From Dehalococcoidia bacterium (GTDB taxonomy: Bacteria > Chloroflexota > Dehalococcoidia > SZUA-161 > SpSt-899), in assembly GCA_046484125.1 (NCBI GenBank), contig JAWOBX010000095.1, forward strand, positions 1 to 61,015: 61,015 nucleotides of DNA, read 5' to 3'. The translations under genes were made by a program, and so were the position numbers. Below, piece after piece: positions 381 through 41,384 of the stretch. The notes beneath the pieces were generated by a model that saw only the letters and a program-made list of their open reading frames with translations, was not told the DNA's origin and did no database searches. Positions within the stretch are counted from its first letter, which is position 1. The number at the start of each line of letters is the position of its first letter.

Positions 381-386
381 TTAGTT

Positions 387-1583
387 TTACCCTTTCATCA
401 AACCCCTCTCCTCCGCCACGCAGCGTACGCCACCCGCATCCATAGCCGCAATACATCTGTTACAATGATCGCAATCCGACCCGGATATTTCACCGGATTG
501 CAGTCTTTTTACAAAGTCGGCATCCCTCACGGTGGCCCTTCCTATCTCAATGAACTCAAATCCTTCATCCATAACTCTTTCCATATCATAGAGCGAGAGC
601 ACTCCACCAATATAGATTACCGGAATCTTCAATGCCTCTTTAAATCTGCGGGCCCCCTCCAGCAGGAAAGTCGGTTCGAAGGGATATTCCTCAACCATAA
701 AGCGCCCGAATAATATGAGTCCCAGCCTGAGCACCGGATTACTCTGATTCCTGGCCATATCGGCGGAAGGTACATTTCCCCTCATCATGTATAAAGGTGT
801 CCTCGCCGTGAACCCGCAACTCGGTATAACCGCTCCGGCCCCCGAAGCCTCGAAAATCCGCGCAACCTCGACCGCCTCATCTAGTTCCAGTCCGCCTTTA
901 AATCCGTCGCGCTGATTCATTTTGACCATAATGGGGAAATCGGGGCCCACTATCTCTCTTGTTCGCTTTATTACAGACGCCGGAAACCGTGCCCTGTTCT
1001 CCAGCGAGCCCCCGTACCGGTCTTTCCGATGATTTGTCCAGGGTGAAAGGAACTGGCTCAACAGGTAGCCATGGCCGGAATGAATCTCCACGGCATCGAA
1101 CCCCGCTTCCTTCGCCAATCCCGCGGCCCTGGCAAAATCCTCGATTTTACCCTCTATCTGGCCCTCTGTCATCTCTTTGCAGATTGACATGCGAAAAAGG
1201 CAGAACTTGCGCGAGGCCCCGATTGGTCTCGTTCCTATTTCACTGCGGCTGGCGAAAAAACCGCAGTGGCCTAACTGTATTGAGGCTTTAGCACCTTCAT
1301 CATGCACGGCGTCTGTAAGCCGCCTCAGGTCAGTTAAAACCTCTTCCCTCATCCATAGCTCGTGGCCGAAGGCCCTCCCGTCAAATGTCACTGAACAATA
1401 TGCCACTGTAGTCATCGCGACCCCCCCTTCAGCCACCCTCCGGTGATGCTCAATCAGTCCATCCGTTACCATTCCCTCCTGGCAAAGCCCTTCGAAGCAC
1501 CCGGACCTGATTATACGATTCCTCAACCTCAACCCGTCTATTGCCCCCGCGGTAAATACCCGGCTTTTCACCTCAGTACTCAC
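387..1583 (-). CDS. OYE-family NADH:flavin oxidoreductase, short type with C-terminal Cys cluster; candidate 3-oxo-5beta-steroid delta4-dehydrogenase/5beta-reductase
   Basis: LRNRIIRS, EIHSGHGYLLSQFLSP, YGGSLENRARF and CDHCNRC motifs. Start moved to GTG 1583 (AGGAG upstream) from the ORF-track 1739. Confidence 0.85.
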   Translation of the reverse strand: MSTEVKSRVFTAGAIDGLRLRNRIIRSGCFEGLCQEGMVTDGLIEHHRRVAEGGVAMTTVAYCSVTFDGRAFGHELWMREEVLTDLRRLTDAVHDEGAKASIQLGHCGFFASRSEIGTRPIGASRKFCLFRMSICKEMTEGQIEGKIEDFARAAGLAKEAGFDAVEIHSGHGYLLSQFLSPWTNHRKDRYGGSLENRARFPASVIKRTREIVGPDFPIMVKMNQRDGFKGGLELDEAVEVARIFEASGAGAVIPSCGFTARTPLYMMRGNVPSADMARNQSNPVLRLGLILFGRFMVEEYPFEPTFLLEGARRFKEALKIPVIYIGGVLSLYDMERVMDEGFEFIEIGRATVRDADFVKRLQSGEISGSDCDHCNRCIAAMDAGGVRCVAEERGLMKG

Positions 1584-1632
1584 TGGCTTGCTCCTTTTCT
1601 GCAGTTTAGGTTGGCCGCTTAACCGTAACTCT

Positions 1633-1794
1633 TCCGATTGGTTCTTATGGTAGATTTGTTCGATGCGAATTTCAACCCTGTTAACTAATCGTAAGTATAC
1701 TGAAAAAAGCCTCACCTGTAATCCTATAGAATCCCTCACGGAGAATAATATGTCCTAATGGTTCATTTCTAACGATTTATATGAACCAATTGGC
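1633..1794. promoter_or_regulatory. Three copies of a candidate operator GAACCAWWNGG in the divergent promoter region
   Basis: 1633-1645 (rc AGAACCAATCGGA), 1753-1765 (rc TGAACCATTAGGA), 1782-1794 (TGAACCAATTGGC). Confidence 0.5.
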
Positions 1795-1845
1795 ACCATA
1801 ATAGGTGAATAAGCGTAACTTATGCGTCGAAACCCCCTCGCAGGG

Positions 1846-1874
1846 TTGTCTTTTTTGAAATAAATATGTATAAT
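1846..1874 (+). promoter_or_regulatory. Sigma70-type promoter of the corrinoid methyltransferase operon
   Basis: TTGTCT-17 nt-TATAAT, about 60 nt upstream of ATG 1937. Confidence 0.6.
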
Positions 1875-1936
1875 GCAAACGTGTCGGAAGTAAACGAATA
1901 TAATTCATAGCTGATCACAAAACTACAGGGGGCAAG

Positions 1937-2572
1937 ATGGGTGTACTAGAAGATATCTCCAAAGCTGTCGAGGAACTGGAAAAAGAAAAAGCTCTTTCCC
2001 TGGTGCGGCAGGCCATTGACGAAGGGGTTGATCCGCCCAAGATAATTCAGGCTGGTATCGTGCCCGGATTGCAGGGTGTGGGTAAAAAGTTCGAGGCGGA
2101 GGAGTACTTCCTCGCCGAGTTGATGATGGGAGGCAAAGTCTCTCAGGCATGCATCGACCTGGTAACCCCTCATCTCCCGGACACCACGGGGAGCAAAGCC
2201 GGAACAGTGGTAATCGGCGCTGTAGAGGGCGATCTGCACGATATTGGCTACGGGCTCGTTGCCACTCAACTTGAACTCAATGGTTTCGAGGTTCACAAGC
2301 TGGGAGTCAACCTGCCGGCGATGACCTTTATCGATAAAGCGAAGGAGCACAACGCGGATATAATCGGCCTGTCCGCATTTCTGGTAACCACCATTCCCAA
2401 CTGCAATGAGGTCATTAACTACCTCAGAGATATGGGGCTTAAGGATAAATACAAGGTGATAATAGGTGGAACGGAAACCAGCCAGGAAAAAGCGGATGCG
2501 ATGGGCGCTGATGGCTGGGCCCCCAACGCCGTGGAAGCGGTCAAATTGTGCCAGCGACTTATGGGCCGCTAG
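1937..2572 (+). CDS. Corrinoid (B12-binding) methyltransferase cognate protein, MtmC/EmtB/AbeB-like
   Basis: Cap domain (GKKFEAEEYFLAELM) plus the B12 motif EGDLHDIG...IGLSAF...VIIGG. Confidence 0.95.
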   Translation: MGVLEDISKAVEELEKEKALSLVRQAIDEGVDPPKIIQAGIVPGLQGVGKKFEAEEYFLAELMMGGKVSQACIDLVTPHLPDTTGSKAGTVVIGAVEGDLHDIGYGLVATQLELNGFEVHKLGVNLPAMTFIDKAKEHNADIIGLSAFLVTTIPNCNEVINYLRDMGLKDKYKVIIGGTETSQEKADAMGADGWAPNAVEAVKLCQRLMGR

Positions 2573-2605
2573 TTTCCAGATTGTTAGCGAGGAGGAGAGG
2601 ATTAG

Positions 2606-3946
2606 ATGATCCCCATTATCGAGTTCCAGGAACGGGCTTTAAACGGCCCGGTAATGAAGAGTGATGAGTTTGATTTAGAATTCTCTATGAAAATCCGCGA
2701 ACTGGTCAAGAAATACAACATTGAATATAACGAGAATGAACTGGTAGTAGACGATGACACGGCTGACGCGGTATACCAGGCAGCGGTTGAACTTCTGGCC
2801 GAAGTCGGTATCTACCATATGGATACCGAACGGGTAATCAAGCTTACCAGAGAAGAGATCGAAGAGGTTGCGGGGGAATACCGGGGGAACCCCGGCCGTC
2901 ATACGTTCGGCAAAGGCAAGGACCAGGTGACAGTTGAATACCGGGCCAGCACGGATAAGAGGCCGCCCACTTTGTATGCCGGCTCGTGGGGAGTGGCGAA
3001 AGAGGAATGGTACAAACCTTATATAAAATCCTTCGTCCAGGAAGAAGCCATAGAGGCGATGGGAATAACCGCCGGTTTGGCCAATCTGGGTAACGTGAGG
3101 GCAAAGGCCGGAACTCCCAGCGAGGTCATCGTCGGGCTCTGGGAAAACGAGAGCGTAAAAGAGGTGGTCGAGGAGGTGGGAAGACCGGGGATGCATCTTG
3201 GATTGCTGGCCACACTTAGCAGCGCCGGTGGCATCATGACCGTAGTAGGAGCAGGCTTCCGGGACGCGCACAACACCCAGATCGGCGTTCATATCATACC
3301 GGAGATGAAGATAAGCTGGAGCCAGTTCGTTCTCGCCCATTATTGCCAGTTGCGGGGAATTCAGCCATGGCAGAGCTCAATGTCGATGATCGGAGGCCTT
3401 TGCCGTAATGCCGCGGACGCGGCGGTTGGATTGACAGCGAACCTGCTTGGCCAGCTTTCCTACGCTCAAGGCCAGTTGTGCAGCCTGTTCACCAATCATA
3501 TGGACGGAAAATCGGCCACCAAGCCGACACATTGGGCATTCAGCGCGGCCGCCCGTGCTTCTGAGCGAAATATAAAAGTGTGTATCGGCGGATGCGCTGC
3601 CGGCGTCCTCTGCAAGTCGCCGTTCACCCTGATTCAAGCTGTAAATATGGCCAGTCTGTTCACCGCCAGCGGTATGTCCTACTGCTGGATAGCGGGGAAT
3701 ACAGGCATAGAGGCCCGGTACACAGGTGAGGTAATGAACGCCATAGCGGGTATGGAGCGAGAGCAGGCCAATGAGCTGATTAATAACATGATGGAACTGC
3801 AACAAAAGTACGCTCCCGAGGTCAAAGGCAATACCTGTAAATTCCCGGATGTGTATGACCTGGAAACAGTCAAACCACACGGATGGTATGTTGACTACAT
3901 TGAAAAGGCAAAGGAGGAACTTGCAAGCTGCGGAGTTCCCTACTAA
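2606..3946 (+). CDS. MtmB-family substrate:corrinoid methyltransferase, non-pyrrolysine, paralog 1
   Basis: GIYHMDTERVIK, GRPGM, PEMKI, TGIEARY and YDLETVKP match recalled MtmB motifs. No in-frame TAG. Confidence 0.9.
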   Translation: MIPIIEFQERALNGPVMKSDEFDLEFSMKIRELVKKYNIEYNENELVVDDDTADAVYQAAVELLAEVGIYHMDTERVIKLTREEIEEVAGEYRGNPGRHTFGKGKDQVTVEYRASTDKRPPTLYAGSWGVAKEEWYKPYIKSFVQEEAIEAMGITAGLANLGNVRAKAGTPSEVIVGLWENESVKEVVEEVGRPGMHLGLLATLSSAGGIMTVVGAGFRDAHNTQIGVHIIPEMKISWSQFVLAHYCQLRGIQPWQSSMSMIGGLCRNAADAAVGLTANLLGQLSYAQGQLCSLFTNHMDGKSATKPTHWAFSAAARASERNIKVCIGGCAAGVLCKSPFTLIQAVNMASLFTASGMSYCWIAGNTGIEARYTGEVMNAIAGMEREQANELINNMMELQQKYAPEVKGNTCKFPDVYDLETVKPHGWYVDYIEKAKEELASCGVPY

Positions 3947-3977
3947 CGATAATTCAAATGACCAGTTTAATCGAGAG

Positions 3978-4781
3978 ATGCTGATTATCGGAGAATCCCT
4001 CAACGCCACTATTCCATCTGTTCGGCAGGCAGTCATTGAACACGATGAAAACAAGATTGCCTCTCTCGCGCGCACTCAGGCGGAGTGTGGGGCAAATATG
4101 CTTGACGTCAACGCCGCTGTACCAGAGCAGGACGAGGTCGAGAATCTGAGATGGATGGTTAAAACGGTGCAGAGGGCGACCGACCTGCCCCTGGTTCTGG
4201 ACAGCTCAGATCCACGGGCAATCGAGGCGGCACTGGAAATCTACAGGGGGCCACCCCCAATCCTTAACTCCATAACCGGGGAGATGACCGAGGGACATCA
4301 CCACCTCCTCGAACTCGCTGTCATGAACGGCTGCGGATTGGTTGTTATGTGCATGGATGAGACAGGGATTTCCCCCGACGCGGAAGTCAGGTTCTCCATA
4401 GCGGTGAAATTGTTCGAACGGGCCAGAGCCGCCGGACTCAGTCCTGAGAAAGTCTATGTAGACCCCCTCGTTATGGCCATAGGTGCTGATTACACCGCGG
4501 GCGCAACCTCCCTTCATGTCCTGCGCCTCATTCAGGAACGTTTGCCACAGGTGTACACGTTCTGTGGTGCCAGCAATATCAGCTGGGGAATGCCCATGCG
4601 CAGACTACTCAATCGAACCATGATCTCCATGCAGGTTTCACTGGGAATGCACGCTTTTCTCGTTGATGTGCGTGATAGCAAATTGATGTCCACGCTGATT
4701 GCGGCAAAGGCGCTCATCGGTCAGGATGAGTGGGGAATGGAGTACATAAGAGCCTATCGGACCGGGAGACTCAACGCCTGA
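3978..4781 (+). CDS. Methyltetrahydrofolate:corrinoid methyltransferase (pterin-binding, AcsE/AbeC-like)
   Basis: MLIIGESLNA, LDVN, PLVLDSSD, ILNS, VDPLV and GASNISWGMP motifs. Start at ATG 3978. Confidence 0.92.
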   Translation: MLIIGESLNATIPSVRQAVIEHDENKIASLARTQAECGANMLDVNAAVPEQDEVENLRWMVKTVQRATDLPLVLDSSDPRAIEAALEIYRGPPPILNSITGEMTEGHHHLLELAVMNGCGLVVMCMDETGISPDAEVRFSIAVKLFERARAAGLSPEKVYVDPLVMAIGADYTAGATSLHVLRLIQERLPQVYTFCGASNISWGMPMRRLLNRTMISMQVSLGMHAFLVDVRDSKLMSTLIAAKALIGQDEWGMEYIRAYRTGRLNA

Positions 4782-5407
4782 TGAGAACAGGATTAATCGT
4801 TTGCGGAGCACTGGGCCGTGAGGTAAAGAACATAGTGCGCAAGCACAGGTGGAATGCATCCATTCTCGGAGTGCCACCCCTCAATCATATGTATCCGCTC
4901 CGTATAGCTCCCGATGTAGAGAGGCGAATCCTGAAACTTCGGGCTGATTGTGATAACATAGCTGTCGTTTACGGTGAATGCGGCACGAGAGGAACCCTTG
5001 ATGAGGTTCTCAATAGATACGGGGCAAAGCGAATCGACGCACAGAATTGCTATGAAATGTATGCCGGAGAGATGTATCAGGAGTTGCTGGAAGAGGAGAG
5101 AGGAACTTTCTTTCTCACGGATTTCCTGGTCCGCACTTTTCACCGAGCCGTCATCGAAGGGCTGGGGCTGGATCGTTTTCCCGAGTTAAAAACTGACTAT
5201 TTCCATAATTGCAGGAGAATCGTTTACCTGGTTCAGAGAAGAGACCCCGAGCTATTGAGACGCGCGGAATCGATCTCTGAGTATATCGATGTTCCGCTGC
5301 AGGTTTACGATACGGGACTTAAGAACCTTGAGGACCGGCTCACAGACCTTTTTAGCAGGCTGCGCTTGGGTTCAACCGAAAACAGGCAGAGAATCCTCTC
5401 ATTCTGA
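4781..5407 (+). CDS. DUF1638 family protein
   Basis: IVCGALGRE, VVYGECGT, NCYEMY and TFFLTDFL motifs. ATG 4781 overlaps the previous TGA. Confidence 0.8.
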   Translation: MRTGLIVCGALGREVKNIVRKHRWNASILGVPPLNHMYPLRIAPDVERRILKLRADCDNIAVVYGECGTRGTLDEVLNRYGAKRIDAQNCYEMYAGEMYQELLEEERGTFFLTDFLVRTFHRAVIEGLGLDRFPELKTDYFHNCRRIVYLVQRRDPELLRRAESISEYIDVPLQVYDTGLKNLEDRLTDLFSRLRLGSTENRQRILSF

Positions 5408-5533
5408 ATGAGGTGAATAACGCGTGAGACCTCCGCAAACACCCGCACGGTATTTTTCACGGCCAACAGGGAATAAGTGGGAATTGTTATCAGTTGACTT
5501 TTCGATGAACAATCAGTATTAAGGAGTTGGTTA

Positions 5534-7192
5534 ATGGCAGACAAACCTCAGACATGGGATATCGAATGCGATTTCATCGCTGTCGGCTCCGGTATAGGCG
5601 GACTTACGGGCGCCATTATTGCCCATGACATCGGCCTGAAAACAGTGATACTGGAGAAGGCTCCCAAGCTCGGCGGCGTCTCAGCACTCTCAGGAGGTGA
5701 GATCTGGGTTCCCAACAACCACGTAATGAAGCGCCAGGGTATAAAGGATACGCGCGACGAGGCAAAACAGTACCTCGACTTCCTGTCAGGAGGGTTTGCC
5801 GAGCCGGAACTGGCCGAAATATTTCTTGACACAGCGCCGGTAGTTTGCGAGTACATGGAGGAGAAAGCAGGCGTTCGCTGGAAAACAATCCCCGATTTCG
5901 CTGATTATTTCTATCCCCATGCTCAGGGAGCGTTGAGAGAGGGGCGATACCTCGAAACCGAGATATTCAAGGGTTCCGACCTGGGAGAGTGGGAGTCACT
6001 GTCGCGCCTGACCCCTCATATGCCCTGTGGAATTACCGCCGAGGAGATGTTTAACTGGGGTGGCGGCGCATGCATGCTCAAATGGGATTTCGCGTTACTG
6101 GGCGAGAGGATGTCCGAGGGTTATCGCACCTTTGGCCCGGGAATGATGGCCTATTTCATCAAGGCAGCAGTTTTAGATAGACAAATCCCGGCGTATCTTA
6201 ATACCGGTGTAAAAGAGCTGGTGATGGATAACAATCGTGTTGTCGGCGTGCGCGCCGAACAGGACGGAAAGGATATCTGGATCGGTGCCCGTAAGGGTGT
6301 GCTCCTCTGTATGGGAGGGTATGACTGGAATGAAGAACTGGCCAGATATTACGAACAGATGCCGGAGTTGCGTTCCGCCTGTCCGCCCCAAATCGAGGGC
6401 GATCACCTGATATTCGGCTGTGAAATCGGAGCACAGGTAGCTGTTATTCCAGTGGGAACACTGGCGACCATGTTTGGCTACAACGTACCCAGCGAGGAGG
6501 CGGAAGGCAAGCCTCTGTGGCGATTATCCGCGGAAGGTGGTTATCCTCACGCAATCTGGGTTAATAAATACGGCCAGAGGTTCTGCGATGAATCCTTCTA
6601 TCCGCAATACTCACCGACTCCGCACATCTGGGATGGCAACCGGAAAGAGCATACCAACTTTCCGGTATATATGATCTTCGATCAGAACCATCGCGATAAA
6701 TATCCCATCGGCCATTTCGCGCCTGGAACAGAACTCCCCGAGGAAATGGTCAAGAGCGCCCCCACACTGAGGGAACTGGCCGGGATTATGGGAATCGACG
6801 CCGAAGGGCTGGAGGCATCGGTCACGCGCTTCAACGGTTTTTGTAAGGACGGTGTCGATAAGGATTTCGGTAAAGGGCAGTATCCGTGGGCCAACTTCAT
6901 GACCGGAGACCTTACCAATCAGCCGAATCCCAATATGGGGCCACTGGAGAAGCCGCCTTACTATTGCCTCAAGTTAACGATCAACTCCGTCGGCATTGAC
7001 TCCGCCGGCCTGAAAACCAATACCAACGGGGAAGTAATCCACGTACGAGGACGTCCGATAGCCGGCCTTTACGCGGCTGGTAACACGGCGGCAGCGCTGG
7101 ATACCGGCGCCGGGTATCAGAGTGGATTCGCCTGCACTCGTGGGATGGTGTGGTCATATATCGCCGCCAGGCACGCTGCCGGCAGACAGTAA
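5534..7192 (+). CDS. FAD-dependent 3-ketosteroid dehydrogenase family protein; candidate delta4-(5alpha) type
   Basis: VGSGIGG, GGVSALSGGEIWVPNN, RFCDES, GLYAAGN and C-terminal GYQSG. Confidence 0.8.
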   Translation: MADKPQTWDIECDFIAVGSGIGGLTGAIIAHDIGLKTVILEKAPKLGGVSALSGGEIWVPNNHVMKRQGIKDTRDEAKQYLDFLSGGFAEPELAEIFLDTAPVVCEYMEEKAGVRWKTIPDFADYFYPHAQGALREGRYLETEIFKGSDLGEWESLSRLTPHMPCGITAEEMFNWGGGACMLKWDFALLGERMSEGYRTFGPGMMAYFIKAAVLDRQIPAYLNTGVKELVMDNNRVVGVRAEQDGKDIWIGARKGVLLCMGGYDWNEELARYYEQMPELRSACPPQIEGDHLIFGCEIGAQVAVIPVGTLATMFGYNVPSEEAEGKPLWRLSAEGGYPHAIWVNKYGQRFCDESFYPQYSPTPHIWDGNRKEHTNFPVYMIFDQNHRDKYPIGHFAPGTELPEEMVKSAPTLRELAGIMGIDAEGLEASVTRFNGFCKDGVDKDFGKGQYPWANFMTGDLTNQPNPNMGPLEKPPYYCLKLTINSVGIDSAGLKTNTNGEVIHVRGRPIAGLYAAGNTAAALDTGAGYQSGFACTRGMVWSYIAARHAAGRQ

Positions 7193-7264
7193 TAATAAAA
7201 GCAAAGCCGTTGTTACCAGTTTATCAACCGTCATTGAAAATAAATCAGAATTAAGGAGGAATAA

Positions 7265-8911: not shown

Positions 8912-8932
8912 AACGACAGAGGAGAACTTAAA

Positions 8933-32598: not shown

Positions 32599-33048
32599 AT
32601 GGAAGAAAAACAGTTTCAGTTTCCACCGGTTCACCAGCTTGGTTATGTAGTTAGTGATATCGAAAAGACCCGTCAATATTATGCCTCAAAGCTGGGCCTC
32701 GAATTTTCCGAGCCGATGGAGGTCAATATGGACGGCGCGTATCTCCGGGGTAAACCTGTCAGTACCAGGATTAAAGTCGCCTTCGCCAAATCCGGCGATC
32801 TCGAACTGGAACTTATTCAGCCAGTAGAGGGCGAGAACCCGTACACTGAATTCCTGGCCAGAAGAGGAGATGGAATCCATCATCTCGCGTTTCAGCTAGA
32901 TGATATGGACGCCGGGAAAGAGCAACTCGCCCGTATGGGGATAGAGCCCCTTTTCCATCAGGATATGGGCTTCATGGAGTTCGCCTACTTCGACACCTCT
33001 GAGCCGGGCGGGGTGATGATCGAATTCATTCACTGGAAGAAAAAGTGA
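32599..33048 (+). CDS. VOC family protein (methylmalonyl-CoA epimerase-like)
   Basis: HQLGYVV, LELIQP, GIHHLAF and MIEF motifs. Confidence 0.88.
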   Translation: MEEKQFQFPPVHQLGYVVSDIEKTRQYYASKLGLEFSEPMEVNMDGAYLRGKPVSTRIKVAFAKSGDLELELIQPVEGENPYTEFLARRGDGIHHLAFQLDDMDAGKEQLARMGIEPLFHQDMGFMEFAYFDTSEPGGVMIEFIHWKKK

Positions 33049-33104
33049 TGATTTTATGGACTGATGATATCGTAACAAATCCGCTTATTAAAGGGGTATG
33101 AGCC

Positions 33105-35291
33105 ATGAATAACGCAGAGGAAAAAGTCGTAACCACTACCTGCGCGCCACATTGCGGCGGGGGGTGCCTCCTGAAGGTCCATGTTAAGAGCGGCGAGATA
33201 ACCAGGATTGAGACGGACGATGGTAATGAACTCCAGGCAAGGGCATGCCTCAGGGGACGCTCCTGGCGGCAGAGAATCTACCATCCGAACCGCCTCAAAT
33301 ACCCGATGAAGCGCACAGGGGAGCGGGGAGATGGTAGATTTGAAAGGATATCCTGGGATGAGGCTCTCGACACCATCGCCAGTGAACTGAAGCGGGTAAT
33401 TGACGCTCATGGACCGGCATCCATTATTCACTGGGTTTCCGGCGGCGACCAGGGCATGCTTCACGATACCTGGCGGCGTATGAGCCGGCTGTTTTGCATG
33501 CTGGGCGGTTACACCCGTCCATGGGGACTTCACTCATATGAGGGTGGCATCTTCGCTGAACTGGCCACCTTCGGAATGGCCTGGACCGCAAGCACCCGTG
33601 ACGATCTCTTAAATTCCCGCCTCATAATTATGTGGGGATGGGATCCATCCACCACGATCCAGGATACCAATACAGCGTGGTTTCTGACACAGGCAAAAGA
33701 GAGGGGAATAAAGATCATATCGATCGACCCGCGTTTCACGGCATCCACTGCAGCATTCGCCAACCACTGGATACCCATCCGTCCCGGAACGGACTCAGCC
33801 ATGATGATAGCCATGGCCTACGTAATGGTGACCGAAAACATCCACGATCAGGACTTCCTCGATAAATATACCATCGGATTCGATTCGTTTAAGGACTACG
33901 TCATCGGCGGCGAAGACGGCATACCGAAAACCCCGGAATGGGGTGAGTCCATAACCGGCGTGCCCGCTGAAACCATACGGAAACTGGCTCGAGATTACGC
34001 TTCGACCAAACCCGCCGCCCTGATAGCAGGCATCGGCCCGGGGCGGAGCGCATACGGGGAACAGTATCACAGGGCAGCCATAACGCTGGCAGCGATGACC
34101 GGTAACATTGGCAAATCAGGCGGATCGTGCGGCGGCAAATCATGGGGCCCCCACGCTCTTGGAAGGATGGGCTCCGGCCCAAAAATCCCCCCGAATCCGG
34201 TGGACAACCTGATCCCAAATCCGGAGGGAAAACTGCCAAATAGGAACCACTACATTTATGGCTATGGCATAATCAATGTATTTCGCGTCACGGACGCCAT
34301 CATCAATGGAAAAGCCGGGGGGTACCCCGCCGATTACAAGTTCCTCTGGGTAACCAACGCCAATCCGCTCAACCAGTGGCCGAATACCAACAAAACCGTG
34401 GAGGCGTTCAATCAACTGGATTTTGTTGTGACGGAAGAGCAGTTCATGACTCCCACAGCCAGATATTCAGACATGGTGTTGCCCATGACCACCTTTTTCG
34501 AACGGAGGGATATCACCATGGGAGCGGCATACCCGCCTTTCTTTGCCTACAGGAACCAGATCATCGATCCTCCGGGGGAAACCAGAAAACCGATGGATGT
34601 AGCCGATGAGCTGGCTGCCAAACTGGGTCTTACGGAATATAACGATAAGTCGGAGGAAGAATGGCTCGATGTGATCCTGCAAAAAAGCGACATCCCCGAT
34701 CACGCCGCCTTTAAGGACCAGGGATTTCACAAAGTTAATCTTACCGAACCGGTTGTCCCTTTTAAGGCCCAGATCGAGGATCCGGCCAGCAACCCCTTCT
34801 ATACTTCATCCGGCAAAATCGAGATTTATTCGCAGATGCTGGCGGATATGAACCACCCCGAAATCCCGCCCATTCCCAAATATATCGCGCCCCGGGAGGG
34901 ACCCGATGACCCTCTAAGGAATGAATATCCGCTGCAGCTTATCACGACCCACACCAGGAGAAGGGCACATACCCAGTTCGACAATGTTTCCTGGCTTCGG
35001 GAACTGGACCCTCACTCCATCCGAATGAACGGAATCGACGCCGAAGCCCGTGGCATCAAAGATGGGGACATGGTTAAGGTGTTCAACGCCCGGGGAACGA
35101 TTGTTATTCCCGCTAAAATAGTGGAAACGATAATGCCGGGTGTCGTTGACCTGCCCCAGGGGGCCTGGTTTGACCCGGATGAAAAAGGCACGGATCGCGG
35201 CGGATGCGCCAACGTCCTTTCCGATAACCGTCCATCGCCGGGGGGAGCACTGCCCTCAAATACCGGCCTGGTTCAGGTCGAAAAGGCATAG
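33105..35291 (+). CDS. DmsA-like bis-MGD oxidoreductase catalytic subunit (Ser ligand), cytoplasmic
   Basis: CAPHCGGGC, ACLRGR, GLHSYEG, IRPGTD and RAHTQF motifs. No Tat signal. Confidence 0.88.
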   Translation: MNNAEEKVVTTTCAPHCGGGCLLKVHVKSGEITRIETDDGNELQARACLRGRSWRQRIYHPNRLKYPMKRTGERGDGRFERISWDEALDTIASELKRVIDAHGPASIIHWVSGGDQGMLHDTWRRMSRLFCMLGGYTRPWGLHSYEGGIFAELATFGMAWTASTRDDLLNSRLIIMWGWDPSTTIQDTNTAWFLTQAKERGIKIISIDPRFTASTAAFANHWIPIRPGTDSAMMIAMAYVMVTENIHDQDFLDKYTIGFDSFKDYVIGGEDGIPKTPEWGESITGVPAETIRKLARDYASTKPAALIAGIGPGRSAYGEQYHRAAITLAAMTGNIGKSGGSCGGKSWGPHALGRMGSGPKIPPNPVDNLIPNPEGKLPNRNHYIYGYGIINVFRVTDAIINGKAGGYPADYKFLWVTNANPLNQWPNTNKTVEAFNQLDFVVTEEQFMTPTARYSDMVLPMTTFFERRDITMGAAYPPFFAYRNQIIDPPGETRKPMDVADELAAKLGLTEYNDKSEEEWLDVILQKSDIPDHAAFKDQGFHKVNLTEPVVPFKAQIEDPASNPFYTSSGKIEIYSQMLADMNHPEIPPIPKYIAPREGPDDPLRNEYPLQLITTHTRRRAHTQFDNVSWLRELDPHSIRMNGIDAEARGIKDGDMVKVFNARGTIVIPAKIVETIMPGVVDLPQGAWFDPDEKGTDRGGCANVLSDNRPSPGGALPSNTGLVQVEKA

Positions 35292-35309
35292 CCAGTTGGA
35301 TGCGACCGG

Positions 35310-37238
35310 ATGAATAAAGATTGTTACAGCGGCAAGATACTGAGGATAGACTTATCCTCGGGTAAAGGGCTGGAACTGCCAACCAGCGATTATGCGCCTC
35401 GTTTCCTCGGCGGCAGGGGTATCGCGGCCGCGCTCTGCTGGGAAGAGGCCGCCCCGAAGCTCGATGCGTTCGATCCGGCGAATCCCCTGATATTCGCCAC
35501 CGGTCCGCTTGCCGGCATACCCGTCATTGGAGGCTCCAGATGGATCGTATACGGCAAATCTCCAGCCACCGACCCACCCCACTTCTGCTCCTCCAACCTT
35601 GGTGGTGACTGGGGACTCAAACTCAAGGGATGCGGCTATGACGCCCTGATGATAACAGGCCGAGCGGATAAGCCCGTTTACCTTCTGCTCAGTAATAGCG
35701 GGTGGGAACTACGCGAAGCGGCGGAACTCTGGGGAAAAGGTGCCATAGAAACGCGAGAGGAATTGAAACGCAGACTTGGCAAAGCGGCCGGCGTAGCGGC
35801 CATAGGTCCCGCGGGCGAGAACCTTGCTGCGATGGCCACCATCATGGCTGACGGTGATGCCTCCGGTTCCGGCGGACTTGGCGCTTCGATGGGGTCAAAA
35901 AATCTAAAGGCTGTCGCGGTAGCCGCCAGGCCGGTGCGAACCCGCGCGGCACAACCGGAAAGACTGAAAGATCTCATATCACACTTCCGCTCATTTGAAA
36001 AGGAGCCGGTAACAAAGGCGAGCGGGATGCCGCTTAGAATCACCGGAAGGGGAACACGGAAAGCTCCCTGCCATGGCTGCGCAGGCACTTGCCTCAGACG
36101 AACGTACAGGGCGGAAGATGGAACAACCGGGAAGTTCATGTGCCAGTCGGCCACGTTCTACCAGCCGATGGCGGAGGCTTACTACGGTCCGGGGTACGAA
36201 ATCCCCTTTCAAGCCACCAGGCTCTGCGATGATTATGGAGTCGACACCATGGCCATCACCGTGATCATAGCCTGGCTGTGGAAATGCTCCAGGGCGGATA
36301 TTCTGAGCGAGCAATCCACGGGAATGCCCATATCCAGACTGGGCAGCCTTGAATTTATCGAAACGCTCATCAGAAAGATATCCCTGCGGGAAGGGTTCGG
36401 CGGCCTTCTGGCCGGTGGCATCGAACGGGCTGCGGCCTCCATGGGCCGGCAATCAATGGAGCTGCTGACCTCTCAGATGTCAAAGGCGGGTCAGCCCAAC
36501 GTCTACGATGCCAGACTCTACATCAACAGCGCGCTGCTTCACGCAACCGAGCCTAAACCTCCCATCCCCCAGCTCCAGGAGGTCACCCGGATAATCTTCA
36601 AATGGCTTGAGTGGTACCGGGGAGAGGCCGGCAGTTACCTTTCGAACGCGGTGGCGCGCGATATCGCGTCGAGGTTCTGGGGAGGGGAGGCGGCGGCTGA
36701 TTTCACCAGTTCTCAAGGTAAAGCGAAGGCGGCAAAACTGATACAGGACCGGCAGTACGCCAAGGAGTGCCTTATACTGTGCAGCTTCCTCTGGCCGGTC
36801 ATGGATTCAGCGAAAACAGATGACAACGTCGGCGATCCGGCACTGGAGGCCGGACTTCTCTCAGCGGTAACCGGTGGCTTGATTTCAGAAGAGGAGCTCA
36901 ACCTTACTGGCGAGAGGATATTTAACCTGCAGCGTGCCATATACCTGCGCGACGGACATCAAGGAGCAGCGGATGACCGGTTGCCGGAAAGCTGGTATAC
37001 TGTCCCCACCCGATGGGATATGGCAAACCCGGAGATGATGGTGCCCGGTAAGGGAGACCGGATGGTATCCCGGAAAGGAGAGGTCGTTGATGGTGAGGTC
37101 TTCGAGAATATGAAAACGGAGTATTACCGTTTGCGGAAATGGGAGGAGTCAACGGGTTTGCCAACCAGGTCCGTAATGGAAGACCTCGATCTGGCTGATG
37201 TGGCCCGCTGGGTTGAAACGATTTCCCGCCAACGTTGA
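35310..37238 (+). CDS. Aldehyde:ferredoxin oxidoreductase family protein 2
   Basis: GKILRIDLS, AIGPAGEN, GLGASMGSKNLKAV, CHGCAGTC and YGVDT motifs. Confidence 0.9.
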   Translation: MNKDCYSGKILRIDLSSGKGLELPTSDYAPRFLGGRGIAAALCWEEAAPKLDAFDPANPLIFATGPLAGIPVIGGSRWIVYGKSPATDPPHFCSSNLGGDWGLKLKGCGYDALMITGRADKPVYLLLSNSGWELREAAELWGKGAIETREELKRRLGKAAGVAAIGPAGENLAAMATIMADGDASGSGGLGASMGSKNLKAVAVAARPVRTRAAQPERLKDLISHFRSFEKEPVTKASGMPLRITGRGTRKAPCHGCAGTCLRRTYRAEDGTTGKFMCQSATFYQPMAEAYYGPGYEIPFQATRLCDDYGVDTMAITVIIAWLWKCSRADILSEQSTGMPISRLGSLEFIETLIRKISLREGFGGLLAGGIERAAASMGRQSMELLTSQMSKAGQPNVYDARLYINSALLHATEPKPPIPQLQEVTRIIFKWLEWYRGEAGSYLSNAVARDIASRFWGGEAAADFTSSQGKAKAAKLIQDRQYAKECLILCSFLWPVMDSAKTDDNVGDPALEAGLLSAVTGGLISEEELNLTGERIFNLQRAIYLRDGHQGAADDRLPESWYTVPTRWDMANPEMMVPGKGDRMVSRKGEVVDGEVFENMKTEYYRLRKWEESTGLPTRSVMEDLDLADVARWVETISRQR

Positions 37239-37279
37239 ACATCATTTCCCGATATCTGGACGAAAAGGAGTTAACAGAC

Positions 37280-38098
37280 ATGCTCAATGAAACTATGATC
37301 AATAATATCCGTGAGGCCGGGATCGCCCAGGGCACACAACAGGTGGAGGACCGAATGAGGCTCCTTGAACATGAATTCGGCTTTCGGATGGCCGACAAAG
37401 CCCAATACGTTGTCCTGGCAAGCTGTTTCAATCCATATCTCGAGCCGGATGACATGAAGGCTTTTAGAAAGCTGCTGGATTATTACAGTATCGACTACAC
37501 GATTATTCCACGTGAGTACTGCTGTGGCGATCCCCTGTACCTCAAGGCGATCAAGGATAACGACCAGCAAGACCTCAAGCAGGCGGATGAACTGGCCGCA
37601 GAGTTCCTAAATCAGAATCTAAAGCAGATCAGGCAGGTCGGAGCGAGCAGTGTCATTATATACTGTGCCGGCTGCGACATGATCTGGGAGCGGCTGGGCG
37701 GCCTATATTCGGAGGAAATTCTGTGGCACCCAACGCTGATAAATCGCCTCTTTCAAGGCGGCAAGCTCGAGCTTCAGGCAGATTATTATGCCGGCTGCCA
37801 TAAGAACCGCCTTACCCTCAACAATACTCTCCCGGACCTGGATTCAGCCCTGTCCTCCCTTTCCCGGATCGAGGGGCTCGAGTTAAACCACCTCGATTCC
37901 AGCCTTTGCTGCACAAAGCCGGATCAGGTGGAAATCCTGTATTCCAGCCTCAAGCACAAAACCTTGATATCGCCATGTCCCGGATGCACACTCTTTTTGA
38001 GGCAGGCTCTTAAAGATAGAGGGGACTATCAGATTTTCATGCCCTCCACCATCATATGGGCCGCCATTAACGGAAGCAGACCCGGAGAGAATTTGTAA
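37280..38098 (+). CDS. CCG-domain (HdrB/HdrD-related) Fe-S protein
   Basis: ASC, EYCCG, YCAGC, YYAGCH, LCC and PCPGC. ATG 37280 follows AAGGAG; alternative TTG at 37235. Confidence 0.78.
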   Translation: MLNETMINNIREAGIAQGTQQVEDRMRLLEHEFGFRMADKAQYVVLASCFNPYLEPDDMKAFRKLLDYYSIDYTIIPREYCCGDPLYLKAIKDNDQQDLKQADELAAEFLNQNLKQIRQVGASSVIIYCAGCDMIWERLGGLYSEEILWHPTLINRLFQGGKLELQADYYAGCHKNRLTLNNTLPDLDSALSSLSRIEGLELNHLDSSLCCTKPDQVEILYSSLKHKTLISPCPGCTLFLRQALKDRGDYQIFMPSTIIWAAINGSRPGENL

Positions 38099-38120
38099 CA
38101 AGGAGAGAAATCGCACTTAG

Positions 38121-38546
38121 ATGAGAAAGCTGCCTGATTCAGTCAAACACTCGCCCTTCGCCGGGGTTTTAGGACTTAAATTCGCCAGAATCGAGGATGG
38201 ATACACCCAGGCAAAAGCCCTGATCACCGACAGATTGCGTAACAACTACGGTACCGTTCATGGTGGTGCTATCTACACGATGGCGGACGTCTGTATGGGA
38301 GCGGCCGTGTTTTTCAGCCTGGATGAAGATGAGATGTGCGTAACGGCCGAGATGAAGATAAGTTATCTCAAACCGGCACATTCGGGAGAATTGCAGTGCG
38401 AGGCGAGGTTGGATCAAAGAACCGGTAACGTGGCAACAGCCGAGTCGGAGATAATCAATAATGAAAACCTGATCGCCAGGGCGATTGGCACTTTCTACAT
38501 TCAGCAAATGCCCGTACAATCCGCTCAAACAAAGGAGGAATCGTGA
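38121..38546 (+). CDS. PaaI-family hotdog thioesterase
   Basis: NNYGTVHGGAIYTMAD and KISYLKP motifs. Confidence 0.92.
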   Translation: MRKLPDSVKHSPFAGVLGLKFARIEDGYTQAKALITDRLRNNYGTVHGGAIYTMADVCMGAAVFFSLDEDEMCVTAEMKISYLKPAHSGELQCEARLDQRTGNVATAESEIINNENLIARAIGTFYIQQMPVQSAQTKEES

Positions 38547-38986
38547 AACCGAAAGGAGTAAACAGGGTTACCATAGCGGTGAACGATCTGGAAAAAGGTA
38601 TGGACGTATTTTCCAGGCTGCTGGGAGCCACTTTCAACCCGGCCAATGAGGAGGATGCCGCGGCATTCGGGATAAGGGTGGCCATGAGCTGGGATGCGGG
38701 GATAGAGCTGGTCGCGCCGATACCGGGCAAAGAAAGCTTCGTCAGGAATCATCTTGAGGAACGGGGCGAGGGGTTGATGGGGGTGGTGTTTTTGGTTGAC
38801 GATGTGGAGGAGGCACGTAGCGAGGCCGAAAAACTCGGCGCCCAGATATGGCACAGTCTGGATTACACTCAGGAGCAAATCGATCAGCACCTTCAGGGGA
38901 GGTTCATAAAATATAAGGAGTACATGTTCAGCCCGGAAGGAACATGCGGCGTCGGGCCAGTGATAGGTGAGATCGAACCGAAGTGA
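38543..38986 (+). CDS. VOC family protein
   Basis: VNRVTIAVNDLE, IELVAP and RGEGLMGVVF motifs. Confidence 0.85.
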   Translation: MKPKGVNRVTIAVNDLEKGMDVFSRLLGATFNPANEEDAAAFGIRVAMSWDAGIELVAPIPGKESFVRNHLEERGEGLMGVVFLVDDVEEARSEAEKLGAQIWHSLDYTQEQIDQHLQGRFIKYKEYMFSPEGTCGVGPVIGEIEPK

Positions 38987-39037
38987 TACCAGTAAAGTAT
39001 TTATCCATTCAGCCAAAATCAAAATCCGGAGGTAATC

Positions 39038-39373
39038 ATGATCAAGACCATTGCCCTGCTCAAGCGAAAACCAGGGATATCTCGAGAGGAATTCGCCAGA
39101 CATTATGAAGAAGTCCACGCGCCTATGGCGATCAAGTTGTTGACGGTATTCAGGAAATATGTACGAAATCATGTGGTGGAGGTACCCGGGGTGGAAGGGC
39201 CCGATTTCGACTGTGTCAGCGAGTTCTGGTTCGATAGCGTCGAGGATGCGATGGAAGTGCAGGAAATTCTCCAATCCGACGCGGCCAGGGAATTACGCGA
39301 AGATGAGGCCTCATTTATCGACAGCAGCAAGACCGTTTCATTTATGGTGGATGAGCGGATTTCCGAGATTTGA
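39038..39373 (+). CDS. EthD-domain protein
   Basis: LLKRKPGISREEF..HYEEVHAP, FDCVSEFWF and DEASF motifs. Confidence 0.9.
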   Translation: MIKTIALLKRKPGISREEFARHYEEVHAPMAIKLLTVFRKYVRNHVVEVPGVEGPDFDCVSEFWFDSVEDAMEVQEILQSDAARELREDEASFIDSSKTVSFMVDERISEI

Positions 39374-39387
39374 GCGGGAGCCGGTCA

Positions 39388-39732
39388 ATGATAAAAGCTG
39401 TCGCGCTACTCAAGCGAAAACCAGGCCTCTCTATGGAGGAATTCATGCGCCACTATGAAGAGACCCATGCCCCGCTGATAATTTCGAAGTCAGTTGGCCT
39501 CGAAAAATACGCAAGGAACTACGTCATCCATAATGCCTCTAACCCGGAACCCGACTTCGATTGCCTGACAGAGCTGTGGTATTCCGATCACGATTCCTAT
39601 AAATCAAGCATGGCCATAAGGCTCGGCGAAGAGGGAAGAGTCATTGAGAAGGACGAGGAAAGCTTTCTGGATACGAGGGTTATCCGTTTCTTCCTTGTCA
39701 ACGAACACTCCGCCCGGACCGCTGGTGAGTGA
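39388..39732 (+). CDS. EthD-domain protein, tandem paralog
   Basis: LLKRKPGLSMEEF..HYEETHAP, FDCLTELWY and DEESF motifs. Confidence 0.9.
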   Translation: MIKAVALLKRKPGLSMEEFMRHYEETHAPLIISKSVGLEKYARNYVIHNASNPEPDFDCLTELWYSDHDSYKSSMAIRLGEEGRVIEKDEESFLDTRVIRFFLVNEHSARTAGE

Positions 39733-39741
39733 GGTTTGGTT

Positions 39742-40506
39742 ATGGATATGGCCGAAATCAATCTTGGGGGGAAAGTCGCCATAATTACCGGCAGCAGTCA
39801 GGGAATCGGTAACACGCTTGCCAGGGGTTTTGCCCGAGCCGGGGCATTCGTTTTCATGGTGGCACGGAATGGCAGCCGGCTTGAGTCGGAAGTTCGCGCC
39901 ATTGAGTCGGATGGGGGGAAGGCACTGGCCCTGCCTGCTGATGTAACCCGCGCGGAGGAAGTTGAAAAAATGGCCAGTCAGGCCCTGGCGAATTCTGGAA
40001 GGATCGACATACTGGTCAATTGCGCCGGAGGTAGCGGAGAGTTCAGGTTCAGACCTCTGTTGGATCTGGAGGAAAACGCCTGGGATCAAGTCATCGAACT
40101 CAACTTGAAGAGTGTCTACCTGTGCTGTCGAGCAGTCGGCCAACACATGGCCGAGAAAATGGGGGGCGCTATCATTAATTTCAGCTCGGGGGCCTCTATC
40201 CAGCCGGTTCCGGGAATGACACACTATTGTTCGGCGAAAGCGGCGGTGAATCAGTTCACCAGGGTTCTGGCCGTTGAATGGGGTAAGTATAATATACGCG
40301 TAAACGCTATCTCTCCCGGCTTGACGGATACTGAGGGTGAACGACGATGGATGCCACCGGAGATGATGGAGAAATACTCAAAGGCAGTTCCCCTTGGACG
40401 CATCGGGAAGCCGGAGGACATTCTGGGCACCGCCTTATTTCTGGCATCCGATATGTCTTCATATCTCAGTGGAGCGATTATCTCGGTAAGTGGGGGACCT
40501 CAGTAG
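39742..40506 (+). CDS. SDR oxidoreductase
   Basis: TGSSQGIG, NCAG and YCSAK motifs. Start could be 39736, 39742 or 39748. Confidence 0.9.
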   Translation: MDMAEINLGGKVAIITGSSQGIGNTLARGFARAGAFVFMVARNGSRLESEVRAIESDGGKALALPADVTRAEEVEKMASQALANSGRIDILVNCAGGSGEFRFRPLLDLEENAWDQVIELNLKSVYLCCRAVGQHMAEKMGGAIINFSSGASIQPVPGMTHYCSAKAAVNQFTRVLAVEWGKYNIRVNAISPGLTDTEGERRWMPPEMMEKYSKAVPLGRIGKPEDILGTALFLASDMSSYLSGAIISVSGGPQ

Positions 40507-40613
40507 TGGGGAGTTCGCTTTTACCCTGATTGAAAAACCTCTGAAAATGTGATGACTTGATGGTCCGGGAGTATAATGGGGGTTGAACAGAATTTACCTG
40601 ATCAGAAGGAGGT

Positions 40614-41384
40614 ATGCAAATGGCACTACCCGATTTCTCTATCAATGGAAAGGTAACCATAGTCACCGGAGCCAGCCGGGGCATCGGTAACGCGCTGGCA
40701 AAGGGTTTTGCTGAAGCTGGAGCCAAGGTGGTGCTGGCAGCACGGACAGTTACCGATCTCCAGTCAACGGCGGATGAGATCAATTCCAAAGGCGGCACCG
40801 CGATAGTTATCCCCACCGATGTAACCCGGCGGCAGCAGCTCGAAGATATGGTTAACGGAGCTGTGGATGAATTCGGGCGGATCGATGTGCTGCTTAACGT
40901 CGCGGGCGGAGCGGGCGAGACCTATGTGCTGCCGCCGCTGGACATGCCTGAGGAATTCTACCATGAACTCGAAGGGCGGAACTATAGAGGCGTTTTCTTC
41001 TGCAATCAGGCTGTTGCCCGCGTCATGACCAAACAGCGATACGGCAGCATAATCAACATAAGCTCGCTCTCGGCAACGAAGCCGGTGGCATTCGAGGCAG
41101 TGGTAGGTGGATTCAAAGCTGCCGTCAATCAAATGACGAGGGCGCTGGCCATAGCCTGGGGACCGGATAACGTCAGAGTCAATGCCATCGCACCGGGATT
41201 GACCCTGACAGAACGCGTCAGTAAAAAGCTGGGACCGGAATTCATCGAAAGCTTCTCTCAGAGTATACCACTCAAAAGGCCTGCTCTACCCGAAGACCAC
41301 CTCGGACCCGCTATATTCCTGGCGTCAGATGCCTCAGCCTATATCACAGGTATGGTTATACCTGCTGACGGAGGTCCACAATAG
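40614..41384 (+). CDS. SDR-fold protein lacking the catalytic Tyr
   Basis: TGASRGIG and NVAG present; the YxxxK position reads VGGFK. Confidence 0.85.
   Translation: MQMALPDFSINGKVTIVTGASRGIGNALAKGFAEAGAKVVLAARTVTDLQSTADEINSKGGTAIVIPTDVTRRQQLEDMVNGAVDEFGRIDVLLNVAGGAGETYVLPPLDMPEEFYHELEGRNYRGVFFCNQAVARVMTKQRYGSIINISSLSATKPVAFEAVVGGFKAAVNQMTRALAIAWGPDNVRVNAIAPGLTLTERVSKKLGPEFIESFSQSIPLKRPALPEDHLGPAIFLASDASAYITGMVIPADGGPQ

Follow-up and report, generated by a model that had tools for sequence, protein, structure and literature searches.

How could an anaerobe remove a methyl group from a steroid without oxygen, and does a 41-kb stretch of DNA from a Dehalococcoidia bacterium encode such a route? 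The stretch (positions 387-41384) is part of contig JAWOBX010000095.1 of assembly GCA_046484125.1, which we analysed over its whole length of 61,015 nucleotides (the window; C99 among the 139 contigs of a 2.68-Mb genome, 93.7% complete and 3.9% contaminated). A sequence-only reading had taken these 41 kb for a single island, an oxygenase-free toolkit for steroids and bile acids with repeats at both ends, in which 3-hydroxyl oxidation would be followed by ring-A desaturation and C-19 demethylation, with ene-reductases as electron sinks. Our analysis suggests, with moderate confidence, that positions 387 to ~27210 hold a Dehalococcoidia counterpart of Abe, a system that uses cobalamin to remove a methyl group without oxygen, aromatising the ring, as predicted from sequence.

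The Abe system was described in Phosphitispora sp. TUW77, which ferments testosterone, in a 2025 PNAS paper (PMC11912376). There, the 3-ketosteroid dehydrogenase KstD forms 1-dehydrotestosterone, the methyltransferase AbeA (an MT1 of the MtmB clade) moves the C-19 methyl to the corrinoid protein AbeB, yielding estradiol, and AbeC passes the methyl to tetrahydrofolate (THF), after which it is oxidised by the oxidative Wood-Ljungdahl pathway. The electrons are used to reduce further testosterone to androstanediol (PMC11912376). The same paper names NQT71483.1, from a Chloroflexota metagenome-assembled genome (MAG) of marine sediment, as the protein most similar to AbeA (~66%).

Three adjacent plus-strand genes of the window have the domains of such a triad. 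First, a 211-aa AbeB-like corrinoid protein (CoP, 1937-2572) carries B12-binding and B12-binding_2 domains and lies 34 nt upstream of the first MT1 gene, an adjacency expected of a cognate AbeB-type protein. Its nearest NCBIfam models, MtgC and MtbC, score under their cut-offs, and it is 83-86% identical across syntenic Dehalococcoidia loci. Second, the AbeA-like product of 2606-3946 (MT1 #1) belongs to the MtmB family (PF05369, E=1.9e-50) and is encoded by an uninterrupted open reading frame (ORF) with no pyrrolysine codon. Third, the ~267-aa AbeC-like protein encoded at 3978-4781 (MT2) has a Pterin_bind domain and exceeds the cut-off of NCBIfam model PRK07535 (283.8 vs 259), which places it among methyl-THF:corrinoid methyltransferases. 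Its start was set at 3978 from the translation and from the ORF of its ortholog at locus L018, whereas the mechanical ORF begins at 3849. A DUF1638 gene comes next (4730-5407, plus strand; PF07796, E=7.6e-24), as it does after MT2 in all orthologous Dehalococcoidia clusters (L001, L002, L004, L005, L009, L018, L059 and L063, where L numbers denote MT1-related loci, 56 of them in species-representative genomes, and G numbers used below denote genomes of relatives). The term DUF1638 is absent from the TUW77 datasets.

The closest tie to Abe is MT1 #1 itself. By exact-sequence look-up, NQT71483.1 was identified as the product of L018:10001-11341; MT1 #1 is 82% identical to it and syntenic with it, and both fall within one orthogroup (7 rows, SH-aLRT 100). 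This orthology to the closest relative of AbeA argues for an Abe-type system, as do the adjacency of the three genes and the MT2 score. Counted by eye, MT1 #1 is also ~50% identical to AbeA3 of TUW77 over 400 residues (66, 47, 53 and ~36 per successive hundred), and this manual value exceeds the identity of AbeA with EmtA (~40%), an enzyme of the same steroid pair (PMC11912376). No TUW77 or Denitratisoma protein was found among the best 120 MT1 matches, nor among the 56 loci.

Downstream of DUF1638 follow two plus-strand genes for FAD_binding_2 flavoproteins, which we call KstD_a (5534-7192, 552 aa) and KstD_b (7265-8911, 548 aa). For both, the best solved match is the 3-oxosteroid 1-dehydrogenase 7p18 (240 and 327.5 bits, respectively), and KstD_b matches KstD1 of Rhodococcus erythropolis (4c3x) with 254 bits. 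The four catalytic residues of KstD1, Tyr119/Tyr318/Tyr487/Gly491 (roles from PMC5348764), are aligned by Y125/Y356/Y528/G531 of KstD_a and by Y124/Y353/Y521/G525 of KstD_b, positions 139/338/507/511 (Y, Y, Y, G) of the 4c3x chain having been converted to KstD1 numbers through an inferred +20 tag offset. The conserved catalytic residues and the nature of these nearest solved relatives again point to an Abe-type system. The two proteins thus share fold and catalytic residues with KstD1 and 7p18, but differ from them in scoring under the NCBIfam equivalog cut-offs and in their anaerobic host. With an identity of only 39% between them, their regiospecificities may differ, one acting for example at delta-4. 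Elsewhere in the genome, single KstD-like genes lie beside two short-chain dehydrogenase/reductase (SDR) genes on contig C8, and beside an SDR gene and an aldehyde:ferredoxin oxidoreductase (AOR) gene on C113.

KstD_b is directly followed by a small protein of the SRPBCC/CoxG fold (8933-9385, plus strand; PF06240 and PF10604), as in all syntenic relatives and also in Fibrobacterota (L031) and Desulfobacterales (L048). It is probably a carrier or binder of a hydrophobic substrate. In TUW77, the SRPBCC gene ABFY19_00265 is directly upstream of the KstD gene ABFY19_00270 (PMC11912376). Then come, as behind the SRPBCC gene of relatives, two genes for long flavoenzymes that join an old yellow enzyme (OYE) domain to Pyr_redox_2 and an Fe-S centre (9490-11553 and 11697-13652, plus strand), putative steroid ene-reductases or desaturases. 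In NCBIfam both score highest with BaiCD (492 and 556 bits, cut-off 825), and their best solved matches are 2-naphthoyl-CoA reductase (NCR, 6qkg, 335 bits) and FadH (1ps9). The TUW77 cluster abeC2-abeB2-abeA2 likewise continues with ABFY19_01955 (PF00724+PF07992; labelled 'putative 3-ketosteroid-delta4-oxidoreductase' by the authors, proteome rank 38; Dataset S1), and abeA3 with ABFY19_02010 (PF00724, 9655.6 fragments per kilobase per million, FPKM; PMC11912376). A divergent, short OYE-domain protein of 450 aa stands at the left end on the minus strand (387-1739; PF00724, E=2.4e-50). It covers only positions 10-243 of the 342 of the profile, and its orthologs, 76-77% identical, occupy the same place in L001, L002, L059 and L063.

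The order of these genes, that is the short OYE on the minus strand followed by CoP-MT1-MT2-DUF1638-KstD_a-KstD_b-SRPBCC-OYE-OYE (block A), is kept in L001, L002, L004, L005, L009 and L018, and in the two same-genus genomes G001 and G003. Beyond these, a KstD-like gene lies in the flank of 25 of the 55 loci that match any family of the stretch, many of the loci being short, and these KstD-flanked loci include some from Neptuniibacter, Fibrobacterota, Desulfobacterales and Desulfatiglandales. A Pfam scan of 85 neighbouring ORFs at 17 distant loci found 3Beta_HSD-family proteins (two each in L036 and L048, one each in L038 and L021), a KshA_C Rieske protein and a P450 (both in L038), SnoaL_4 (L014) and a long OYE (L035); paired FAD_binding_2 genes are found near MT1 relatives in L016, L021, L032 and L036. 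The conserved order of block A, the linkage of MT1 with KstD and the same neighbourhood logic in TUW77 speak for the Abe-type interpretation. In a proteobacterial MAG (L038) and a Binatia MAG (L028), MT1 and CoP are joined by a PF02574 homocysteine S-methyltransferase-type protein, not by a pterin-binding MT2; this type may be an aerobic variant or use a different methyl acceptor.

This linkage also bears on whether the triad could serve an ordinary C1 substrate such as methylamine, methanol, methoxylated aromatics or betaine, with the flavoproteins, OYE proteins, CoA-transferase, acyl-CoA dehydrogenase (ACAD) and AORs degrading unrelated alicyclic or aromatic CoA esters, in which case it would be by chance that the names of the families suggest steroids. 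Homologs of MT1 are indeed labelled 'monomethylamine:corrinoid methyltransferase' in public sources. The similarity of the OYE proteins to NCR and FadH and the presence of CoA-transferase, ACAD and thioesterase genes would also suit such a role, and expansion of these families throughout the genome is typical background. Like MtmB/MtmC/MtbA of Methanosarcina, the triad combines PF05369 with a three-component corrinoid logic. However, MT1 #1 has no in-frame amber codon for the pyrrolysine of true MtmB and matches MtmB, its nearest solved structure, with only 112 bits; its neighbours are steroid-type flavoproteins, and MT2 is of the THF type instead of the coenzyme M type found in Methanosarcina. 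Moreover, an MT1-KstD linkage across phyla is unexpected for methylamine use, and it occurs as well in TUW77, a strain studied experimentally (PMC11912376). We therefore consider a C1 substrate unlikely.

The methyl-THF expected from an Abe-type triad would have an outlet in this organism. All four Wood-Ljungdahl marker families that we searched for were found in the genome (CdhC/AcsB, FTHFS, MTHFR with three genes and Prismane/CODH with two), together with three RACo-type corrinoid activators and ADP-forming acetyl-CoA synthetase-type domains, while the acetate kinase family had no match in the genome. The absence of any AtcABC-type hydratase, claimed from the window, held genome-wide: PF02738, the xanthine-oxidase-family molybdenum subunit of AtcA type, gave 0 matches in the 93.7%-complete genome, the search being positive as a control in 6 of 14 genomes. 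That agrees with a harvest of methyl groups that leaves the rings uncleaved, and the Wood-Ljungdahl and activator genes, like the absence of PF02738, favour the Abe-type interpretation.

Could the same genes run in the opposite direction? EmtABCD of Denitratisoma sp. DHT3 is an estradiol methyltransferase (bioRxiv 10.1101/714501) whose MT1, also of the MtmB clade and without pyrrolysine, works with an MtmC-like corrinoid protein at steroid C-10. By analogy, oestrogens would be methylated here with methyl-THF from the Wood-Ljungdahl pathway to give androgens for catabolism. Corrinoid methyl transfers are reversible in principle. However, Emt belongs to a denitrifier that then degrades the androgen, has EmtC and EmtD instead of a THF-type MT2, and has no Wood-Ljungdahl pathway. 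Both features from which the demethylating direction was assigned in TUW77, a THF-type MT2 and the Wood-Ljungdahl pathway (PMC11912376), are present here, and androgens would have no onward route in a genome in which no AtcA-family enzyme was found. This reverse reaction is thus very improbable.

Following the Abe scheme, the enzymes would act as follows. SDRs would first oxidise the 3-hydroxyl of a steroid, or of a steroid-like polycyclic alcohol, to the ketone; from the catalytic residues and the synteny, the KstD-like pair and/or the long OYE proteins would then introduce the ring-A double bonds of a 1,4-dien-3-one. MT1 #1, along with its four paralogs in the genome, would move the angular C-19 methyl to Co(I) of CoP, leaving ring A phenolic, as suggested by the orthology to the closest AbeA relative. 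MT2, assigned to its family by the NCBIfam cut-off, would pass the methyl to THF, and methyl-THF would enter the Wood-Ljungdahl pathway, whose genes are present elsewhere in the genome. The SRPBCC protein would probably carry the hydrophobic substrate meanwhile. Reducing equivalents could be disposed of by OYE ene-reductases and SDRs on further steroids, as in TUW77, or the methyl group could end in acetyl-CoA. The route put forward by the sequence-only reading (delta-1 desaturation, C-19 demethylation, ene-reductases as electron sinks, no ring cleavage) thus agrees with the published AbeABC, with the orthology to NQT71483.1, with synteny and with the Wood-Ljungdahl and AtcA results; a steroid is its presumed substrate.

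The comparison with TUW77 shows both likeness and difference. Shared are an MtmB-family MT1 without pyrrolysine, a CoP of ~211 aa and a pterin-binding MT2 side by side, a long OYE+Pyr_redox_2 gene directly beside MT1 genes, an SRPBCC gene paired with a KstD-like one, several MT1 paralogs, the Wood-Ljungdahl pathway and the lack of a detected acetate kinase. In contrast, the host is a Dehalococcoidia member of the Chloroflexota instead of a Bacillota, five MT1 paralogs share one CoP/MT2 set where TUW77 has three or four full sets, a tandem KstD-like pair and DUF1638 lie within the operon-like array, and neither a sigma-54 regulator nor an MFS transporter was found near the cluster.

Several observations weigh against an Abe-type system acting on steroids. 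First, the main evidence against it is that the nearest solved structures of the long OYE proteins, 2-naphthoyl-CoA reductase and FadH, are enzymes of CoA thioesters, and the top model of all four long OYE proteins is BaiCD, at 481-556 bits vs a cut-off of 825. Second, KstD_a and KstD_b remain below the NCBIfam KstD cut-off (NF009478; 375 and 487.5 vs 789), and KstD_b scores nearly as well, 445.5 bits (cut-off 1000), with ChcC1, a 4-oxocyclohexanecarboxylate 2-dehydrogenase. Even in TUW77 the KstD gene is weakly expressed (FPKM 19.5), and the desaturase step is thus inferred in the model organism too (PMC11912376). Third, the ~50% identity to AbeA3, counted manually, is below the ~66% given there for the ortholog. 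Fourth, a CoA-transferase, a 3-hydroxyisobutyrate dehydrogenase (HIBADH)-like protein and an ACAD are conserved next to these genes and have no place in the Abe scheme, and no transporter or regulator was found with the cluster. Fifth, given the high counts in the whole genome of AOR (12), bis-molybdopterin guanine dinucleotide (bis-MGD) enzymes (13), CoA-transferases (16), ACAD (18) and SDRs (39), part of the apparent toolkit is background. Finally, the five MT1 paralogs point to several substrates, not necessarily androgens, and function in this organism is predicted throughout.

These paralogs raise the question of which substrates are meant. The chemistry could be the same but act on different 3-ketones, polycyclic or alicyclic, that bear a quaternary methyl, such as sterols with intact side chains, triterpenoid or other terpenoid ketones or 4,4-disubstituted cyclohexadienones in general, each MT1 serving its own position or skeleton. 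The genome has five MT1 paralogs and one close CoP/MT2 set; the window CoP is the only one in it at >42% identity to itself. Relatives have 2-6 paralogs each. The two MT1 paralogs of the window are 61% identical and belong to separate, well-supported clades (that of the second, MtmB2, with 15 rows and SH-aLRT 97) whose neighbours differ, KstD and OYE genes in one case and two SDR genes in the other. The score of KstD_b with ChcC1, a desaturase of monocyclic ketones, and the bis-MGD and FeS pair beside an MT1 paralog in L015 (described below) go in the same direction. On the other hand, the sole characterised members of the clade, AbeA and EmtA, act on C19/C18 steroids (PMC11912376), steroid-typed neighbours (KshA_C, 3Beta_HSD family, KstD) recur, and no terpenoid-specific gene was seen. 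We therefore keep this explanation as a possible but clearly less probable one than an Abe-type system for steroids. On contig C111 of the same genome, an MT1 paralog lies beside KstD-like, HIBADH-like and OYE-like genes.

The second MT1 of the window (20705-22054) is part of another plus-strand group, block B, where it is preceded by a long OYE gene (18720-20678) and followed by two SDR genes (22078-22881 and 22921-23748). The order OYE-MtmB2 (one to three copies)-SDR1-SDR2 is kept in L007, L008, L010-L013, L064 and G001. Behind it lie, on the plus strand (23876-27210), genes for a family-III CoA-transferase (CoA_transf_3, 23876-25099), a HIBADH-like dehydrogenase and an ACAD (26050-27210), assigned by Pfam with NCBIfam cut-offs unreached. 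In G001 they also follow SDR2 (87%, 73% and 90% identity, respectively), and L013 has the CoA-transferase (84%). The transferase had been called BaiF-type; it does belong to the CaiB/BaiF family, but its nearest relatives are formyl-CoA and succinate-glutarate transferases, so that no closer identity with BaiF stands.

Such genes invite comparison with the bai operon of Clostridium scindens, and the whole 41 kb could be imagined as a bai-like pathway acting on bile-acid CoA thioesters, with BaiCD/BaiH flavoenzymes, a BaiF transferase and BaiA SDRs. The long OYE proteins share the OYE + Pyr_redox_2 Fe-S architecture of BaiCD/BaiH and have BaiCD (NF041087) as top model, the transferase is of the CaiB/BaiF family, and the SDRs are nearest to 7-alpha-hydroxysteroid dehydrogenase (HSDH) models. 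However, all these scores are far below the cut-offs (those given above for BaiCD, 190-215 vs 350 for the SDRs), and the transferase is closer to other families. Unlike the bai operon, the window has no domain of a BaiB-type ligase or BaiE-type dehydratase (no AMP-binding or SnoaL domain among the 33 proteins of the stretch at E<=1e-5), and the 41 kb are not one conserved unit. A bai-like pathway is accordingly the most improbable of the explanations considered here, and the bile-acid specificity first suggested for these enzymes found no support.

Is the 41-kb stretch then a unit at all? It makes up 1.5% of the genome and contains 5 of the 9 long or short OYE genes, 2 of the 5 KstD-like genes and 2 of the 5 MtmB-like genes, with a binomial P of ~1e-7 for the OYE count (hand arithmetic), and this clustering is beyond chance. 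However, in G003, of the same genus, blocks A and B with their MtmB modules are ~1 Mb apart on one scaffold. Between the two blocks of the window lies a plus-strand insert (13976-18667) encoding AOR1 (13976-15886; best solved match 1aor with 261 bits, BamB 4z3w 190 bits), a GlcD-like FAD_binding_4 protein and a CCG-domain Fe-S protein; no such genes separate the OYE orthologs in G001, G003 and G014, and of the genomes compared only this one has the insert. Thus, the search for synteny across relatives showed that blocks A and B are conserved and that the 41 kb are a juxtaposition of at least three modules, not the single island first described.

The third module, block C (27482-41384, plus strand; Pfam and PDB searches), encodes an acetylene-hydratase-like bis-MGD enzyme (27482-29701), a long OYE (29823-31748), a DmsB-like FeS protein, a glyoxalase-fold protein, a DmsA-like bis-MGD enzyme (33105-35291), AOR2 (35310-37238), a CCG protein, a 4HBT thioesterase (38121-38546), a second glyoxalase-fold protein, two EthD proteins and two SDRs (starting at 39736 and 40614). 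The block is conserved as a unit of its own: in three relatives, the orthologs of both bis-MGD enzymes are found together on contigs other than those of blocks A and B (G014 C14, G001 C73 and G009 C158), and the same query did not find them in G003. Without support from synteny, we rejected block C as part of the methyltransferase system; it is, like the AOR1 insert, a neighbour and not a demonstrable part of it. The sole hint tying a block-C-type enzyme to the methyltransferase family comes from L015 (G009 C74), where a DmsA-like bis-MGD enzyme, 56% identical to that of 33105-35291, and its FeS partner adjoin an MT1 paralog and three SDRs. While the enzyme of 33105-35291 is DmsA/TorA-like, that of 27482-29701 is cytoplasmic and matches acetylene hydratase (2e7z) over its full length with 446 bits. 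The Cys that ligates the metal, W, is conserved (C140), whereas Pro15 occupies the site of the Asp next to the second Fe-S cysteine, which we take to be catalytic in acetylene hydratase, and we rejected that identity. Relatives have orthologs of it (86-87%) as well as several paralogs (38-43%).

The inventory of gene families on which the island had been proposed stood at family level when we scanned the 33 proteins called in 387-41384 with Pfam at E<=1e-5: five OYE proteins, four SDRs, two KstD-like flavoproteins, one CoA_transf_3, one ACAD, one 4HBT thioesterase, two AORs, two bis-MGD enzymes and two MtmB-family proteins, at the positions given above. Likewise, the plus strand carries 32 of the 33 genes, and none of the 33 proteins has an oxygenase domain at that threshold. 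Overlooked had been the corrinoid protein, the pterin-binding MT2, DUF1638, SRPBCC, the GlcD/CCG pairs, the DmsB-like FeS protein and the two glyoxalase-fold and two EthD proteins. No protein reached the NCBIfam equivalog cut-offs for KstD, BaiCD or HSDH, and an Rfam scan of the window gave 0 matches, hence neither a cobalamin riboswitch nor another known RNA.

The repeats do not mark borders either. At the left end (3-391), two tandem hairpin-bearing units of ~119 nt (3-121 and 273-391) enclose a third element (146-235). With these elements (3-121, 273-391 and 146-182) blastn gave 73-171 hits on 49-67 of the 139 contigs, further copies within the window are at 32428-32464, 51945-52142 and 59016-59112, and the right-end spacer (41385-41494) holds no copy. 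The claim of MITE-like repeats at both ends thus failed, and we rejected them as island borders: they are dispersed elements of the repetitive extragenic palindrome (REP) or miniature inverted-repeat transposable element (MITE) kind. The family is intergenic, hairpin-bearing and ~100-160 nt long. As the window starts inside the tandem pair, these repeats may cause assembly breaks. A tyrosine recombinase gene (41932-42870) was likewise rejected as island integrase, since it sits within an aroQ/xerC-like/topA/dprA array that we infer to be housekeeping.

Further right, the minus strand encodes a DAO-family flavoprotein (47092-48216) and a 530-aa protein with only the central domain of glutamate synthase (PF01645, 48301-49893), a pair just upstream of nitrogen-regulation genes. 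Two minus-strand genes of the NrpR type, an archaeal-style nitrogen repressor (50595-51596 and 57891-58973), have in common a 185-nt stretch with 70% identity and flank a nitrogen-assimilation array of glnA (52370-53707), PII (53933-54271), amt (54268-55494) and gdh (56505-57752).

How widespread is the MT1 family? It was found in 9 of the 61 genomes searched, own included, with 2-6 matches per positive genome. The positive genomes belong to three genera, all in the same family (4/4, 1/1 and 3/3; 8/19 for the family as a whole), while none of 25 genomes of the sister family and none of the class-level sample had a match. In species-representative genomes, the 56 loci are spread over many anaerobic phyla (at least 8 phylum labels), and the representatives of 50% clusters number 633, 345 and 79 at E<=1e-3, 1e-10 and 1e-30, respectively. 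There is also a weak hint of expression in metatranscriptomes, as contigs from three RNA libraries (two studies) cover 20, 17 and 16 of the 30 bins of window positions 1-20000, mostly at >=99% identity, with no silent-stretch control and with >=99% identical contigs in one DNA run as well; bins left uncovered carry no information.

A system of this kind was already known, and the orthologous MT1 had been pointed at in the PNAS paper. What is new is the full Dehalococcoidia architecture with its twin KstD genes and the accompanying SRPBCC and DUF1638 genes, one CoP/MT2 hub shared by five MT1 paralogs, and the wide spread of the family over anaerobic phyla. Our literature search for Dehalococcoidia, 3-ketosteroid, methyltransferase and corrinoid found nothing on this cluster among the papers listed, and within the literature searched abe terms occur in this sense only in the PNAS article with its preprint and in a single review. 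Oxygen-free oestrogen formation was shown there in one fastidious gut isolate, and abeAB was called rare (PMC11912376). By analogy, Abe chemistry is probably shared by subsurface microbes of a widespread group, with a gene logic that is more elaborate in uncultured Dehalococcoidia than in the gut isolate TUW77, and the KstD-like pair, the SRPBCC protein and the long OYE proteins become named candidates for steps left unassigned in the model study. As a speculation that we hold as rather doubtful, the MtmB-like MT1 family could be a general tool with which sediment anaerobes strip angular methyls from several kinds of polycyclic 3-ketone (steroids, whether or not they have a side chain, and perhaps triterpenoids) and live on them via the Wood-Ljungdahl pathway, making Dehalococcoidia and their kin agents of the ring-A or stepwise aromatisation of steroids and terpenoids recorded in young anoxic sediments. 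For geochemists, the cluster would offer an enzymatic route to ring-A aromatic steroids that can be put to the test. If the Abe-type interpretation is true, phenolic (oestrogenic) steroids would arise in anoxic sediments and in salt lakes, and abundant subsurface bacteria would have a C1 substrate in steroid methyl groups.

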